A DNA stretch of 64,000 nt from a bacterium (GTDB taxonomy: Bacteria; Patescibacteriota; Minisyncoccia; UBA6257; GWB1-50-10): contig JAKAHD010000002.1 in assembly GCA_021815205.1 (NCBI GenBank), positions 45,538 to 109,537 of the forward strand, in the 5' to 3' direction. The notes under the pieces were generated by a model. The model was not told where the DNA came from and did not search any database. It saw nothing but the letters and a program-made list of their open reading frames with translations. The translations under genes were made by a program, and so were the position numbers. Positions 16,884 to 58,580 of the stretch are shown here, piece by piece. Numbering within the stretch: position 1 is the stretch's first letter; each line of letters opens with the position of its first letter.

Positions 16884-18050
16884 ATGAAGAAAATTGCGGT
16901 TATGTATTTTCTTGCCGCGCTTATCATTGAATTTGCTGCGGTTTCATACTTTGGGGGAAGCATGGCGTTCTTTCATGTTCCGCAATCGAGTGTGAGGATG
17001 GGGGAGACCTTATCGTCCTCGAGAAACCAACCGGCGATCTCCATTGCGTCAGGAACGGATCCCGCATCGGCGGCGCCGATAAGTACTTCTCCTCAAAAAC
17101 AGAGCACCGCTTCGTCCTCGGGGAAGAAAAAGACGAACCCGACGGTACGAGAGGCGCCGCCGCCCCAGTCCGCATCTTCAGTACCGCAAGTTGATTTACA
17201 AGGAAAAAGTTTTGTGGGACTCTTGTGCCACTTTGGTGCAAACACCGCCGCGATTGCGAACGCGTACGGCAACAGTTCCGGAGAGATCCTCATGAAAGGA
17301 AGCGGGGTCATCGTAAATTCCGAAGGGTATATCTTGACCGTGCGGCATCTTGTCGATCCAAAATGGACGAACTGGGCATATGCCTCTTCAACCTCGGACA
17401 GTATGAAGATCTTAAACAACAATATCACGTTCAAGTACTGCGAGGTTGCGATGCCGACCTCGGATGCGCTGCCCGATATCGCGGTGATTCAGCGCATCAA
17501 TCCGAATATCACCGTGAACCACCCGTTCTTGTATCTTGCGACGCTTGCGTTTGTGCCGCCGCAGGGGAGTTTGAGCGATTATGAGTACGGATATCTTGAT
17601 TTTGCGGTGTTGAAAGTTACGGAGCCGATGCATAATTGCGCGCAGTTCAACGCGTGCACCCTGCCGCGTTCCTATCCCTACAGCCCGTCGCTCTCCGCGG
17701 AGGTGCCGGAAAAGGGGACGAATATCCTGAATTTCGGATATCCCGCGGAGCTCATTAATTCAAGAGCAAGCACCTTCAATGATTTTTATTTGAAGGGTAC
17801 GCTCGGGTACTTGAAGGATTATTTCGGAGGCGATGCGTACTTCAAAAACAAACCCTTCACGTTCGAGTGGACGGCGAACGATGTCCTCGAGGGACGATCG
17901 GGGTCGCCCCTCATGTGGAAGGGGTACATTGTGGGAATTCAGACCTCGACGAACATTGAGAACTCCGCGGAGGACTTTGCGCTCGGCATCCCCGCGATCC
18001 AGCGGATCCTCAAGGAGAATAATTTAGGGGACATCCTTATAACGAATTAA
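16884..18050 (+). CDS. secreted trypsin-like serine protease (S1 family)
   Basis: Signal anchor MKKIAVMYFLAALII; GSGVIVNSEGYILTVRHLV (His) and GRSGSPL (Ser) motifs. Confidence 0.7.
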   Translation: MKKIAVMYFLAALIIEFAAVSYFGGSMAFFHVPQSSVRMGETLSSSRNQPAISIASGTDPASAAPISTSPQKQSTASSSGKKKTNPTVREAPPPQSASSVPQVDLQGKSFVGLLCHFGANTAAIANAYGNSSGEILMKGSGVIVNSEGYILTVRHLVDPKWTNWAYASSTSDSMKILNNNITFKYCEVAMPTSDALPDIAVIQRINPNITVNHPFLYLATLAFVPPQGSLSDYEYGYLDFAVLKVTEPMHNCAQFNACTLPRSYPYSPSLSAEVPEKGTNILNFGYPAELINSRASTFNDFYLKGTLGYLKDYFGGDAYFKNKPFTFEWTANDVLEGRSGSPLMWKGYIVGIQTSTNIENSAEDFALGIPAIQRILKENNLGDILITN

Positions 18051-44899: not shown

Positions 44900-44983
44900 G
44901 CTCAGGTGTCGGAACTGGTAGACGATCACGACTCAAAATCGTGTGGCCGTAAGGCCGTGAGGGTTCAAGTCCCTCCCTGAGCA
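44900..44983 (+). tRNA. tRNA-Leu (anticodon CAA)
   Basis: Acceptor gctcagg/cctgagc, anticodon stem cacga/tcgtg with loop cuCAAaa, long variable arm ggccgtaaggcc, T-arm gaggg-ttcaagt-ccctc, discriminator A. Confidence 0.85.
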
Positions 44984-44985
44984 CA

Positions 44986-52370: not shown

Positions 52371-52404
52371 GATCAGAATGGGGGATTTTTGCTATACTGA
52401 ACTC

Positions 52405-53334
52405 ATGAAACAATACCTCGATTTGCTCCGCGACGTGGTGGAGCATGGGACAAGGAAGGGTGATCGAACCGGCACGGGAACCGTCTCGATCTTCGGGCGG
52501 CAGATACGTTTCAATCTCGAAGACGGATTTCCCGCGGTGACGACGAAGAAGCTCTATATGAAAGCCGTGATCCATGAACTCTTATGGCTTTTGATGGGCG
52601 AGACGAACATCCAGTACCTTGTGAAGCACGACGTGAAGATCTGGAACGAGTGGGCGTTCGAGGTGTATCTCGCGAAAAATAATCTCCGCGAACAATATCC
52701 GCGCTACTCCGATGCGTGGCAGGAAGAGATGAAAAATTTTATCGAGAGGGTAAAGACGGATGACGTGTTTGCAAAAGCATGGGGCGAACTGGGGCCGATC
52801 TACGGAAAGCAGTGGCGGAGGTGGCAGGGACCGAACGGAGAAGAGGTGGATCAGATTGCAAACATAGTGGATCTAATTGAACACGATCCGACCTCGCGGA
52901 GAATTATCGTAAGCGGGTGGAACGTGGGAGAGATTCAGGAACTCGTGCGAAACCATCATTCGGCGCCACCGCCGTGCCACACGCTTTTTCAATTTATTGT
53001 GGTGGATGGAAAACTTTCGTGCCAGCTCTATCAGCGGAGCGCCGACCTTTTTCTTGGAGTACCCTTCAATATCGCGTCGTACGCGCTTCTCACGATGATG
53101 CTCGCGCAGGTGACGGGCCTGAAGCCGGGAGAGTTCATTCATACGTTCGGCGACGCGCATATTTATCTGAATCATCTGGATCAGGTGAGAGAGCAACTCT
53201 CGCGCACGCCGCGGCCCCTGCCTCGCATGAAGATTAATCCGAGCGTGAAGTCCATCTTCGATTTTAAGTATGAGGACTTTGAACTCGAGGGCTATGACCC
53301 GTACCCCGCCATCAAGGCGCCGATTTCAGTCTAA
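52405..53334 (+). CDS. thyA: thymidylate synthase (ThyA) with ~45-aa insertion
   Basis: DRTGTGT, active-site [27 protein letters not shown]. Confidence 0.9.
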
Positions 53335-53354
53335 AACTTATGCCAAGATATTTT

Positions 53355-53402
53355 GTCATCCTGAGTTTTTCTGTCATCACTGAACGCAGTGAAGGATCTT
53401 CT
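53355..53402. repeat. W-element partial copy
   Basis: tgtcatcctgagtttttctgtcatcactgaacgcagtgaaggatcttc. Confidence 0.5.
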
Positions 53403-53416
53403 TTGATTAAATAGTA

Positions 53417-53914
53417 ATGATTATCTCTCTTATTGCAGCACTATCGAACGACGGAGTGATCGGGAACCGTGGGAAGATTCCGTGGCATCTTCCCGCGGAT
53501 TTGAAGCATTTCAAGGAGATCACGTTGGGGCACCCCGTGATCATGGGGCGAAAAACTTATGAATCAATAGGGAAACCGCTTCCCGGGAGAACGAACATTA
53601 TTGTAACGCGGCACAAGGAGTATGCTGCGCCGGAGTGCGTCGTGGCATCCACACTCGAAGAAGCGTTCGATGCCGCGCGCGTCTCGGGTGCGGGAGAAGC
53701 GTTTGTGATAGGAGGCGCGGAGATTTATAAAGAAGCGATGCCGCGCGCGGAGAAACTGTACCTCACGAACGTGGAAGGAGATTTCGAGGGAGACGCATTT
53801 TTTCCCGAAGTGAGTTCGCTTGAATGGAAGGAGATTTCGAGGGAGAAGGGAGTCGTGGACGAGAAGAACGGGTATCCGCATACATTTCTTGTATTTGAAA
53901 GAAAACGGAATTGA
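53417..53914 (+). CDS. folA: dihydrofolate reductase
   Basis: IAA...DGVIG....IPWHLP.DLK.FK..T.G..VIMGRKT.ESIG.PLP.R.NIVVTR. Confidence 0.9.
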   Translation: MIISLIAALSNDGVIGNRGKIPWHLPADLKHFKEITLGHPVIMGRKTYESIGKPLPGRTNIIVTRHKEYAAPECVVASTLEEAFDAARVSGAGEAFVIGGAEIYKEAMPRAEKLYLTNVEGDFEGDAFFPEVSSLEWKEISREKGVVDEKNGYPHTFLVFERKRN

Positions 53915-53938
53915 CATTTTTTCGGTTCCCGTGATAAT
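53911..53938 (+). promoter_or_regulatory. near-consensus sigma70 promoter (TTGACA-N16-GATAAT)
   Basis: ttgacattttttcggttcccgtgataat immediately after folA stop. Confidence 0.6.
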
Positions 53939-53944
53939 CTGGAG

Positions 53945-54125
53945 TCCGATAGACCTTTCACATACACGGCGGAGTCTTATGGTTGAGGTCCTGGCCGCAT
54001 GATGTCGGAGTTATCGCCCGACAACACGCAACTGATGATAGGCTAATGTCATCGGTGCCGGGACGAGGGTTCGAGTCCTTTGCTCCGCACGAAGTTTCTC
54101 TCCTCGCAGAAAAGGAGGTCGGCAT
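53945..54125 (+). ncRNA. candidate structured RNA or long leader of lemA-htpX (tRNA-like T-arm; ends in hairpin + U-tract)
   Basis: ~180 nt between strong promoter and lemA; gaggg-ttcgagt-ccttt T-arm-like motif pairing gcggagt/gctccgc (too long for a tRNA); hairpin tctcctc-gcagaaaa-ggagg followed by tttttatattt. Confidence 0.3.
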
Positions 54126-54184
54126 TTTTATATTTCCCGCCGCACCTCCTTTCTTTTTTCTCTCGTCGTGCTATACTGTCTCAC

Positions 54185-54739
54185 ATGACCCCAGAAACAA
54201 TAATTCTTATTATCGCCGCGGTGATTATAGTGTGGGCGATTTCTTCGTTTAACGGTCTTGTTTCAAGGAAAAACAGGGTTGCCGAGGCGTGGTCGGATAT
54301 CGAGGTCCAGCTCAAACGCCGGTACGATCTGATCCCGAATCTCGTCGAGACCGTGAAAGGATATGCCGCGCACGAGAAATCCGTGCTTGAGAATGTGACC
54401 AATGCCCGTACTGCCGCAATGTCTACCGAAGATCCCAAGGCGAAACTCCAGGCGGAAAACCAACTCTCCCAAACCTTGAAGACGCTCTTCGCGGTCGCGG
54501 AGAATTATCCCCAGCTCAAGGCGAACGAAAACTTTTCGAAACTGCAGGACGAACTCACCGATACGGAAGACAAGATTCAAGCCGCGCGCAGGTTTTATAA
54601 CGGCAATGTCCGCGACTACAACACGGCGATCGAGGTGTTTCCGAAGAACGTGATTGCCGGCATGTTCGGCTTCACGCACAAAGAACTCTTTGACGTGGAC
54701 AACGACGTCGAGAAACAACCAATCCAAGTCAAGTTCTAA
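54185..54739 (+). CDS. lemA: LemA family protein
   Basis: N-terminal TM; W.D.E.QLKRR.DLIPNLV..VKGYA.HE; typical lemA-htpX pairing. Confidence 0.85.
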   Translation: MTPETIILIIAAVIIVWAISSFNGLVSRKNRVAEAWSDIEVQLKRRYDLIPNLVETVKGYAAHEKSVLENVTNARTAAMSTEDPKAKLQAENQLSQTLKTLFAVAENYPQLKANENFSKLQDELTDTEDKIQAARRFYNGNVRDYNTAIEVFPKNVIAGMFGFTHKELFDVDNDVEKQPIQVKF

Positions 54740-54741
54740 CG

Positions 54742-54852
54742 CACGAATGGGCACAAATCGCCCACGAATATCACAAATTCGTATGAGTGGTATTCGTGTT
54801 CGTCGACCGGCGGGATTTGTGTCGCATTTGTGGTTTATTAGTGTATATTCGT
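54742..54852. repeat. CACGAAT/ATTCGTG-type imperfect palindrome in htpX leader
   Basis: gcacgaatgggcacaaatcgcccacgaatatcacaaattcgtatgagtggtattcgtgttcg ... tatattcgtgcg ending at htpX start. Confidence 0.65.
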
Positions 54853-54856
54853 GCGT

Positions 54857-55765
54857 ATGACCTTATACACCCAAGCATCCTCAAATGTCCGAAAAACGTG
54901 GGCGCTTCTCATGGGTTTTTTCGTGCTCATTATCGCGATCGGCTGGACTTTTAGTTATGCGTATCAGTCGCCGGGCATTCTTGTTTTTGCCGTTATGGTG
55001 AGTGTGATAATGAGTGTCACGAGCTACTGGTTTTCGGATAAGATCGTGCTTGCGAGTGCGGGTGCGAAACCAATCGAGAAAAAGGACAATCCGGAATTAT
55101 ATCGCCTCGTCGAAAATCTTACTATCGCCTCTGGGCTCCCAATGCCGAAGCTTTACGTGATCCCGAATCCCGCGCCGAACGCGTTCGCGACGGGGCGCGA
55201 CAAGGAACACGCGGTCGTAGCCGTAACGCAGGGACTTTTAGATGTCATGAACAAGCAGGAGCTTGAGGGAGTCCTCGCGCATGAGCTTTCGCACATCGGC
55301 AACAAGGATATGCTCGTCTCGACGGTCGTCGTGGTCCTTGTGGGTGTAATTTCGCTCCTCGCCGACTGGTTCTTACGGATGAGTTTCTTCGGTGGAAGGA
55401 GAGATGACAGGGACTCGGGCGGCAATATTATGTTTTTTCTTGGCATCGCAGGCGCGATTCTCGCGCCGATTGCGGCGACCTTGATCCAGCTCGCGATCTC
55501 AAGAAAGCGGGAGTTTTTGGCGGACGCCTCGGGCGCCCTCCTCACGCGGTATCCCGAAGGGCTCGCGAGCGCACTCCAAAAACTGGAGGCGAACCCGTAC
55601 AGCATGAAAGCATCGTCCGCAACCGCGCATCTCTATTTTGCAAACCCGTTCAAGGCGGATAGGGGAGAGAAAGATTCGAAGAAGATACCCTGGGTTACGA
55701 AACTTTTCATGACGCATCCCCCGATTGAGGAGCGCATTAAAGTATTGCGTCAGATGTCGGTCTGA
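54857..55765 (+). CDS. htpX: zinc metalloprotease HtpX (M48)
   Basis: HELSHIGNKDM (HExxH), 4 TM, C-terminal FMTHPP.EERI. Confidence 0.85.
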   Translation: MTLYTQASSNVRKTWALLMGFFVLIIAIGWTFSYAYQSPGILVFAVMVSVIMSVTSYWFSDKIVLASAGAKPIEKKDNPELYRLVENLTIASGLPMPKLYVIPNPAPNAFATGRDKEHAVVAVTQGLLDVMNKQELEGVLAHELSHIGNKDMLVSTVVVVLVGVISLLADWFLRMSFFGGRRDDRDSGGNIMFFLGIAGAILAPIAATLIQLAISRKREFLADASGALLTRYPEGLASALQKLEANPYSMKASSATAHLYFANPFKADRGEKDSKKIPWVTKLFMTHPPIEERIKVLRQMSV

Positions 55766-55915: not shown

Positions 55916-55955
55916 TGCGGTGGAAAAAAGGGGATGATTGTGTAATAATAAAGGC

Positions 55956-56927
55956 ATGAAGAAGAATGATGGTTTTATACCGCTGTGGGCGCTCCTCGTC
56001 GCGCTCGGCGTGATCGTAGTCGCGGGAGGAGTGTGGTATCTCAACTCATCGTCGGGGACAAAAGTATTTGACCCGAGTCCCAATGATCCGATTTGGCGGG
56101 TGTACACCGACACCGCGAACGGATTTGAAGTAAAGTATCCAACGGGAGTTACGCTCCAAGAGCAGAACGGCGACGTCTCCCTCTCTTTTCCGGGAGATAA
56201 GGCGCGCATTTATCTTAAGGTAACCAACACACTCTCCGCACCGCTTTTCGGGACGTTCGGCGGCTGGTATCAATATAACAAAGCCGCGGGGTCACCAAAT
56301 CTCGTGTCCACCGGCACAATCGGTAACTTCGCAGTAGATTATTTTATGCAAGATGCCGGCATGGGGTCGTGGGACAGAGCGATAAATGCGTATCAGACGA
56401 AGAACGGCACCTATTATGAATTATCCTTGTATTATCCGCGGGAATTCAGCGTGCCGGCCGGCGCTGATCACCAAGCCGCTATTGCGGAGGCAAGCGCTGA
56501 TTTGCACGATCTGAACAACGCATATGTGAAGACATTTACGAAAATTCTTAATACATTCCGGTTTACCCTGCCGCAGGGAGTGGAGAAGAAAACATGGAAC
56601 GGAATGACTTTCGACTATCCGGCCGGGTGGACGGTGAGGGAAGATACGTACGCGACACCCGCGCAGACAGCGGAAGGCACCCCACCTTCAGTGGTTGGTC
56701 TCAGTATCGAAAAAGTAACGGGAGCAGAACAATATTTTATTGAGATCGGCGGGCGTCAAGCCGACTGCCGCGGAAACAGCGGTTATGCGAAGTGCGTGAC
56801 TATTCAAACGCCGGATAAACAGCTTTGGCCCGTGCACACAATAAACAGAGACTCCGACACTTTGAGCGTTTTCGATTCAATCGTTCAGAGCATCGTGCAG
56901 CACGGCGGCGCGATCTACCGCTACTAA
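55956..56927 (+). CDS. hypothetical membrane-anchored/secreted protein
   Basis: Start at MKKNDGFIPLWALLVALGVIVVAGG (signal anchor); no motif recognised. Confidence 0.5.
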   Translation: MKKNDGFIPLWALLVALGVIVVAGGVWYLNSSSGTKVFDPSPNDPIWRVYTDTANGFEVKYPTGVTLQEQNGDVSLSFPGDKARIYLKVTNTLSAPLFGTFGGWYQYNKAAGSPNLVSTGTIGNFAVDYFMQDAGMGSWDRAINAYQTKNGTYYELSLYYPREFSVPAGADHQAAIAEASADLHDLNNAYVKTFTKILNTFRFTLPQGVEKKTWNGMTFDYPAGWTVREDTYATPAQTAEGTPPSVVGLSIEKVTGAEQYFIEIGGRQADCRGNSGYAKCVTIQTPDKQLWPVHTINRDSDTLSVFDSIVQSIVQHGGAIYRY

Positions 56928-58490: not shown

Positions 58491-58580
58491 GGAGGGGTCG
58501 CATAGCGGTCTAGTGCGCAGTCCTGGAAAGACTGTATACCCGAAAGGGTATCGAGGGTTCAAATCCCTCCCCCTCCGCCA
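58491..58580 (+). tRNA. tRNA-Ser (anticodon GGA), CCA encoded
   Basis: Acceptor ggagggg/cccctcc, anticodon stem cagtc/gactg loop cuGGAaa, long variable arm tataccc-gaaa-gggtat, T-arm gaggg-ttcaaat-ccctc, discriminator G. Confidence 0.85.

Follow-up and report, generated by a model that had tools for sequence, protein, structure and literature searches.

A putative gene for a non-decoding, tRNA-like RNA between folA and lemA in a patescibacterial genome

What lies between folA and lemA in the 64,000-nt stretch of patescibacterial DNA analysed here (GenBank assembly GCA_021815205.1, contig JAKAHD010000002.1, positions 45,538 to 109,537; the whole stretch is called the window): a gene in its own right, a regulatory leader for the genes downstream, or the remains of an older gene? 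An earlier note on this DNA had read there a near-perfect promoter at the folA stop, a tRNA-like T arm closed by a 7-bp acceptor-like helix in a transcript about 40 nt too long for a tRNA, and a hairpin with a U-tract ahead of lemA. All of these are indeed present, at the positions given below. The answer that we favor, with a probability of roughly 0.6 on the strength of the sequence, is an independent small-RNA gene of tRNA descent, whose product would be a non-decoding, tRNA-like structured RNA.

The core of the locus is a 121-nt unit (53969-54089; all features described here are on the forward strand) that runs from an acceptor strand to a discriminator base and is ~45 nt longer than a tRNA. 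Its minimum free energy is -56.7 kcal/mol (z = -5.24), none of 200 shuffled sequences folds as well, and the minimum-free-energy and centroid structures concur in a four-way junction, nearly free of linkers, whose arms are an acceptor stem, a 4-bp D-like hairpin, an 8-bp helix (P3) and the T arm. The 5′ acceptor strand GCGGAGU (53969-53975) pairs with GCUCCGC (54082-54088), which is followed by the discriminator A73 at 54089; CCA is not encoded, the next bases being CGA. The miniature D-like hairpin CUUA-UGGU-UGAG (53976-53987) follows without an 8-9 linker and keeps GG in its loop, and the T arm GAGGG-UUCGAGU-CCUUU (54065-54081) has a canonical T-loop consensus. In the predicted fold, the place of the anticodon stem is taken by P3, formed by GUCCUGGC (53988-53995) and GCCGGGAC (54057-54064), the latter adjoining the T arm with no variable loop. 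P3 opens not into a 7-nt loop but into a compact three-way junction, 61 nt long with its two hairpins and two junction bases included; the earlier note had not recognized that the extra 45 nt take this form. Hairpin H1 (53997-54029; base GCAUG/CACGC, loop AGUUAUCGC) is preceded by a 1-nt linker, and hairpin H2 (54031-54056; 10 bp, loop GGCUAA) sits directly on P3 with no linker at all. When both strands of the window were searched for a T arm joined to a perfect 7-bp acceptor, only three sites were found, namely this RNA gene and two genuine tRNAs. Of the window's tRNAs, tRNA-Ser(GGA) encodes its CCA end and tRNA-Leu(CAA), at 44900-44984, does not. Three other motifs were considered and set aside: loop-loop pairing of H1 with H2, which is plausible in the window and in the related loci L084 and L085 and absent in L102; a hammerhead suggested by CUGAUGA in H2, where no GAAA core stands in register and no Rfam ribozyme model matches; and a C/D box or K-turn (UGAUGU, CUGAUGA), the motifs of which are not kept in the homologues.

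Is this architecture maintained? Homologues were found by turning the single sequence and its fold into a covariance model and searching loci reached through close LemA and FolA relatives: L084:1013-1174 (162 nt), L085:1738-1892 (155 nt) and L102 ~2361-2528 (~167 nt). All three lie downstream of folA in sister Patescibacteria, and the contigs of L084 and L085 extend to lemA. Each refolds to the same architecture, with H1 and H2 of unrelated sequence and different length; the L102 RNA carries one additional hairpin past the acceptor strand. The acceptor stem covaries (G1-C72 becomes A-U, and U7.G66 becomes U-A or C-G), the D-like hairpin reads CCU-GUGGU-GGG or CCC-GUGGU-GGG, the base pairs of H1 covary across the four species, its distal stem is wholly different in sequence and yet still pairs, and H2 ranges from 26 to 67 nt. 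In a hand alignment of the four sequences, 91% of cells in the junction helices are paired, as against 33-42% when the partners are slid, and six pairs have changed on both sides. MAFFT/RNAalifold, run automatically, placed the window sequence wrongly, and the manual alignment was used instead. Identity in the RNA core is 77-78% when the window is compared with L084 or L085, and 90% between those two; at four-fold degenerate sites of the flanking lemA it is no more than 51-52%, which argues for purifying selection on the RNA. Since the lengths (121, 155, 162 and ~167 nt) differ by indels that are not multiples of three, there is no conserved reading frame and no coding potential.

The family is new and phylogenetically narrow, being known from a few sister species. 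Searches of 83 lemA loci with nhmmer and blastn recovered identical copies only, and a distant-mode blastn search of a phage database left the RNA unmatched. A metagenome-wide scan with the pattern GTTCGANTCYYTNNCTCCGYACGARG returned only the contig already known as L084, and a scan of viral contigs with GTTCGANTCYYTNNCTCCGYACGA, the same pattern minus its last two bases, returned none. A further 467 kb, made up of 75 lemA loci of Patescibacteria and three viral contigs, was searched with the covariance model; these 78 loci yielded no additional member, only weak matches to ordinary tRNA-Ser and tRNA-Thr genes, and ARAGORN with introns allowed detected no tRNA in them immediately upstream of lemA.

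The unit is bracketed by signals that are appropriate for a stand-alone gene. A sigma-70-type promoter (53911-53938) consists of a -35 box TTGACA (53911-53916), a 16-nt spacer and a -10 box GATAAT (53933-53938), and the folA stop codon TGA (53912-53914) falls within the -35 box. It matches 11 of 12 consensus positions and is one of just three sites of that quality on both strands of 20 kb. A start ~7 nt past the -10 box would give a 5′ leader of ~24 nt (53945-53968), which opens with the conserved cUGGAGUCCG; the leaders of the homologues are 70-130 nt long. Beyond the discriminator, a 3′ trailer (54090-54107) carries a CU-rich motif, UUUCUCUCCUC (54095-54105), that is kept in L084, L085 and L102, and it leads into an intrinsic terminator (54108-54159) made of the hairpin AAGGAGGUCGGC ... 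GCCGCACCUCCUU and a U-tract. The hairpin itself (54108-54154) has ~14 bp, a folding energy of -20.3 kcal/mol and a z of -3.0, and UUUUU comes next; a simple terminator scan passed over it because of its 15-nt loop. Its stems change compensatorily in L084, L085 and L102 (UCGGC/GCCGCA, UAAGC/GCUUA, GCAGU/ACUGU). The predicted primary transcript, from ~53945 to the U-tract, would be ~215 nt long rather than the ~180 nt of the earlier note, whose reading as a discrete RNA with a tRNA-like T arm and acceptor helix is otherwise supported. TTGACA with the same 16-nt spacing also precedes the RNA of L084, L085 and L102 and a tRNA pair in L005. At three of these promoters (L084:911-946, L005:2634-2668 and L102:2256-2290) the perfect TTGACA and 16-nt spacer are followed by GGTACC or TTACCT rather than a TATAAT-like sequence, which may represent an unusual -10 element or a weakened promoter. 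Pairing of leader with trailer (GGAG with CUCC) was convincing in L102 only and was not retained as a feature; nor was a small open reading frame (ORF) that follows the GGAGG within the terminator, which occurs in L084 and L085 and not in the window.

Where, then, could such a gene have come from? In relatives somewhat further removed, with LemA 79-90% identical, a tRNA gene occupies the slot ahead of lemA, and its anticodon region is abnormal in every one. In L005, a normal tRNA-Gln(CUG) comes first and a tRNA with the loop CUGUCCG (or a 5-nt loop) second, and this is the pair that shares the -35 box and spacing of the RNA promoter. The tRNA of L098 has a 6-nt anticodon loop, CUUUUU. In L087 and L093, the acceptor, D, variable and T regions are canonical, and structured inserts of 106 and 129 nt stand between the strands of the anticodon stem; the bodies are nearest to tRNA-Pro, and phage tRNA-Pro(UGG) genes have the same, or very nearly the same, acceptor and T arm. 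In L101 the 3′ end alone remains, at the contig edge. The gene is absent from L004, L090 and L103, where the spacer is 13-160 nt. That one slot holds all kinds of defect in the anticodon region suggests that only the top half of the molecule is under selection. The window RNA itself is 64-72% identical to each of five reference tRNAs and too diverged for an isotype call. A mobile-element origin of the inserts was considered and dropped, as each is single-copy and they share no similarity.

Other tRNA-like sequences and spacers were encountered along the way. At L096:1653-2795, an IS3-family element (rve and HTH_Tnp_1 ORFs) abuts the 3′ half of a tRNA-like gene upstream of lemA (T arm GCAGG-UUCAAGC-CCUGC, acceptor 3′ strand UGUCUGC-A), which may have been struck by the insertion sequence. 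An AT-rich viral contig (IMG/VR UViG_3300025778_000034) carries at L107:2134-2270 an unannotated 136-nt tRNA-like gene behind TTGACA; the T arm and the 3′ acceptor strand match those of tRNA-Pro(UGG) exactly, and its sole ARAGORN call is a "tRNA-Phe" with an intron of 46 nt. In L098, groEL and the tRNA-like gene are 625 nt apart, and the spacer contains long perfect palindromes (L098:2420-2530 and 2760-2800; e.g., CCGGGTAGTAGAAACTCGAC ... GTCGAGTTTTCACTACCCGG) and a possible small ORF behind GGAGG.

These relatives make it reasonable to ask whether the window gene is simply a tRNA pseudogene in decay, having taken insertions in its anticodon loop and drifted, with a promoter and terminator that are not yet eroded or a terminator that still insulates lemA. 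The absence of the gene from L004, L090 and L103, an anticodon region that differs in every lineage, the IS3 element lying against the tRNA-like 3′ half in L096, the poor -10 boxes of L084 and L102 and the degenerate D arm and variable region of the window RNA would all fit such a history. Neutral drift is nonetheless hard to reconcile with a core that is far better conserved than the four-fold sites of lemA, with compensatory double changes that maintain the acceptor, T, P3, H1 and H2 helices, with terminator stems that covary too, and with inserts that fold into well-formed helices in each species. Moreover, the streamlined genomes of this lineage rarely keep 270 nt of dead spacer, and in L004 and L103 the spacer has shrunk to 13-34 nt. 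We consider decay rather improbable, while granting it a real share.

A second possibility is that the gene encodes a functional tRNA interrupted by a new type of short intron (56-129 nt) and spliced to a decoding product such as tRNA-Pro(CGG). Many tRNA introns of Patescibacteria escape annotation tools (PMC13011429), the inserts of L087 and L093 are flanked by canonical D arms, variable loops and anticodon stems, and ARAGORN with introns calls both of these loci at its default threshold. The window RNA was a different matter: at default thresholds the locus was empty in the tRNA, tmRNA, mitochondrial and intron modes, and only when the threshold was lowered to 80% did a mis-registered "tRNA-Pro(CGG)" with a 56-nt intron appear. 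Neither ARAGORN nor the Rfam tRNA model (RF00005) recognizes it as a canonical tRNA. The 7-bp acceptor with discriminator and the T arm with T-loop consensus are there, but a canonical tRNA would also have a 5-bp stem with a 7-nt loop holding U33, the anticodon and a purine at 37, none of which is found; and where a tRNA would have 7-11 nt in its D loop, 4 nt or more in its variable loop and 70-95 nt overall, the RNA has 4 nt, 0-2 nt and 121 nt, respectively, and it lacks the 8-9 linker. Any 7-nt splice register yields U37.

The introns known from bacterial tRNAs belong to the group I ribozymes, measure 184-894 nt and leave canonical exons (PMC13011429). The window insert is 56 nt, the group I model RF00028 does not match it in Rfam at E<=10, and none of the inserts of 56-129 nt matches an Rfam intron or small-ribozyme model or shows a bulge-helix-bulge motif. 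Excision would leave U37 and aberrant D and variable regions in the window (a D loop of 4 nt, a variable loop of 0-2 nt and the 8-9 linker missing), a bulged C would remain in the would-be anticodon stems of L084 and L085, and the implied anticodons disagree among orthologues (CGG, CGG, UGG, CGA, CUG). The uninterrupted relatives L098 and L005 likewise have abnormal loops. A spliced, decoding tRNA is unlikely, then, decidedly so for the window gene and less so for L087 and L093.

Could the RNA instead be a diverged member of a known housekeeping family, as the earlier note had suggested? The signal recognition particle (SRP) RNA, 6S RNA, tmRNA and YrlA are the obvious candidates, and the lack of a variable loop together with a long helix in the anticodon position does recall the tRNA-like domain of tmRNA. 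Rfam 15 was scanned, with models that took in tRNA, tmRNA, SRP, 6S, YrlA, riboswitches, T-boxes, group I introns and small ribozymes. Across the whole window at the gathering threshold it gave no match at the RNA locus, and over 53850-54250 (401 nt), at E<=10 with relaxed filters, no match whatsoever; the check with SRP, 6S, tmRNA and riboswitch models that the note had proposed thus came back empty. The SRP domain IV motif and the 6S central bubble, as represented in their models, are not matched. Against tmRNA stand the G3-C70 pair in place of G3.U70, the absence of a tag reading frame with pseudoknots, and the negative ARAGORN tmRNA mode; a frame ending in ...MVEVLAA-stop at 53982-54002 was dropped as a candidate tag, as it comes with G3-C70 and no pseudoknots, is not conserved and was judged coincidental. 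The YrlA model (RF02553) is likewise unmatched, the ends of the RNA forming an acceptor stem rather than a Ro-binding stem, which is the opposite topology. No rsr gene, the YrlA partner, was seen among the flanking genes checked, in which no search aimed at rsr was made. The known-housekeeping-RNA reading is effectively refuted, and no description of such an RNA was found in the literature.

The other suggestion of the earlier note was that the sequence is a riboswitch-like leader or attenuator for lemA-htpX. In such a scheme, the tRNA-like fold or a bound factor would switch between the terminator and an alternative pairing and so govern read-through into these genes: the terminator pairing GGAGG:CCUCC would compete with pairing of the CU-rich trailer UCUCCUC to GGAGG. 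The order CU-rich/GA-rich/CU-rich is kept in the window, L084, L085 and L102 and is weaker in L087, L093 and L101, and the RNA gene is on the same strand as lemA-htpX and beside a stress cluster (relA/spoT, groES/EL, htpX). Yet lemA has an extended -10 box of its own, TGcTATACT (54169-54177), 7 nt before its ATG at 54185 and with no Shine-Dalgarno sequence, so that its mRNA is probably leaderless and most likely starts from its own promoter, outside the RNA gene. The terminator of the RNA would then separate two units, and an attenuator role becomes unlikely; a read-through transcript would carry lemA behind an untranslatable 240-nt leader. In addition, the alternative hairpin has 4-5 bp only as against ~14 bp in the strong, covarying terminator, orthologous lemA genes work without the element in L004, L090 and L103, and neither a riboswitch nor a T-box model matches. 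Antisense pairing of the RNA to the 5′ ends of lemA and htpX was no better than background (z ~0) in three species. Taken together, attenuation seems very improbable to us.

The lemA box is part of a wider pattern. Each lemA orthologue examined, whether or not the RNA is present, has a -10-like box a short way ahead of its ATG, and leaderless mRNAs appear, from such signals, to be the rule in the window genome and its relatives. At the starts of htpX (54838-54859) and of the next ORF, which has 329 aa (55938-55958), the -10-like boxes are TGTATATT and TGtgTAATAAT; as with lemA, they end 6-7 nt before the ATG, and no Shine-Dalgarno sequence is present.

We return to the favored explanation, a small-RNA gene of tRNA descent. 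The near-consensus promoter and intrinsic terminator would define a precursor from which RNase P could release the 5′ end by cutting at G53969, followed by 3′ trimming and CCA addition. These steps are plausible because the enzymes concerned read the acceptor/T-arm half only, and that half is retained (a 7-bp acceptor with discriminator and a canonical T arm and T loop); the predicted ~12-bp coaxial acceptor/T-arm helix, the T loop and the single-stranded 5′ leader are what would be expected of an RNase P substrate. The small D hairpin with its GG could possibly contact the T loop. In place of the anticodon loop stands the compact three-way junction, with H2 stacked on the former anticodon stem and H1 branching from it, in an architecture held by purifying selection in sister species while the sequences and lengths of the hairpins were free to vary. 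Such a product would not decode, since it has no 7-nt anticodon loop, no register of U33, anticodon and purine 37, and no variable loop. Its most likely role would be that of a stable tRNA mimic engaging a factor that recognizes the tRNA top half, whether as a decoy, as a scaffold displaying the variable module or as a carrier outside translation. A more far-reaching version, which we regard as possible but tentative, is that the slot houses a natural "tRNA scaffold": a highly expressed RNA matured and stabilized by the tRNA machinery, in which the anticodon loop serves as a free insertion site for lineage-specific modules (three-way junctions or long hairpins of 56-129 nt), the product being a tRNA-mimic regulator of a new class or a non-ribosomal aminoacyl carrier in organisms of minimal regulatory repertoire.

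Several points weigh against this explanation. Transcription of the gene is inferred, as are the cleavage by RNase P, CCA addition and stability of its product, and no partner protein or target was found. The family is small, with four three-way-junction members and about five of other types, and the gene must be dispensable, as close relatives (L004, L090, L103) do without it. With two G.U pairs the window T stem is weak, and that of L102 has no more than 3 bp; the -10 boxes of L084 and L102 (GGTACC, TTACCT) are poor. The discriminator (A or U) and the 1:72 pair vary, contrary to what a fixed aminoacylation identity would require. Both the junction alignment and one of eight loci were made by hand with the structure in mind; in the latter, pairing reaches 96% in the acceptor, anticodon-stem and T helices, with changes on both sides at 15 of 17 pairs, but the set may mix descendants of two ancestral tRNAs, and any set of tRNAs would covary in this way.

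The surroundings of the gene are straightforward. The order is groEL, thyA (52378-53334), folA (53417-53914), the RNA gene, lemA (54185-54739) and htpX (54851-55765), the identities of folA and lemA-htpX being backed by Pfam. An identical locus occurs in contig DAIBZI010000002.1 of the metagenome-assembled genome GCA_027423515.1 (Patescibacteria, candidate phyla radiation), and two short-read assemblies carry the same locus as the window; the contig of this organism was assembled from SRR13300764 and SRR17201078. In three relatives with LemA 84-90% identical, a divergently oriented thyX replaces thyA-folA (window 52378-53914), exactly between groEL and the tRNA-like/lemA unit (L087:7959-9692, L090:3167-4837, L093:130-1863); this is a swap of thymidylate synthase systems. 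A tRNA-Ser(GGA) is kept 1-3 kb downstream of lemA-htpX across many Patescibacteria (at least 20 loci, e.g., L011:3501-3586); in the window it lies ~4 kb past lemA-htpX, at 58491-58580, and in L087 ~7 kb, at 17722-17809.

If expressed and stable, the RNA would offer a clear bacterial case of a tRNA gene turned into a gene for a non-decoding structured RNA, with intermediates visible at one locus (a normal tRNA, an abnormal loop, a long insert, and remodelled D and variable regions). There is also a practical side. Both tRNA finders and Rfam miss the window gene, and ARAGORN finds the interrupted relatives in intron mode only and with inconsistent isotypes; genes missed or misassigned in this manner affect estimates of tRNA complement and completeness in Patescibacteria genomes. 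The reach of the finding is limited, as the gene was found in a narrow clade only and is dispensable in close relatives.

How does the RNA compare with known systems? With canonical tRNAs (RF00005; the slot itself holding a Gln(CUG) gene or a Pro-like body) it shares the 7-bp acceptor and discriminator, the 5-bp T stem, the UUCRANY T loop, the GG in the D loop, the organization as a stand-alone gene from promoter to terminator and the lack of an encoded CCA, the last also seen in the window tRNA-Leu, as well as the genomic slot, -35 box and spacing of the real tRNAs in L005. It differs in its 121-nt length, in having a two-hairpin three-way junction for an anticodon loop, in the missing 8-9 linker and variable loop, and in its 4-nt D loop. 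The tRNA genes with group I introns described in Patescibacteria (PMC13011429) resemble it in phylum, in the interruption of the anticodon loop and in having been missed by standard tools, but those introns are ribozymes of 184-894 nt within canonical exons, whereas the insert is 56 nt long in the window and reaches 129 nt in relatives, lacks a group I core and lies between "exons" that are not those of a canonical tRNA. The tRNA-like domain of tmRNA (SsrA) has the same top half, a reduced D region and a long helix that stands in for the anticodon stem and meets the T arm directly, with no variable loop between; the window RNA, at about one-third of the size, lacks the G3.U70 alanine identity pair, the pseudoknots and the tag frame. 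YrlA (RF02553), too, combines a non-decoding mimic of tRNA T and D arms with an extra helical module, except that in YrlA the ends are found on the anticodon side, in the Ro-binding stem, and the acceptor-like stem is closed, while the window RNA ends in its acceptor stem. Finally, the mascRNA of MALAT1 and the 3′ tRNA-like structures of viruses keep only the features that RNase P and the CCA-adding enzyme read, and do not decode; they are parts of longer eukaryotic or viral transcripts. The window RNA, presumably non-decoding as well, would differ from them in being the product of a stand-alone bacterial gene with an expanded anticodon arm.

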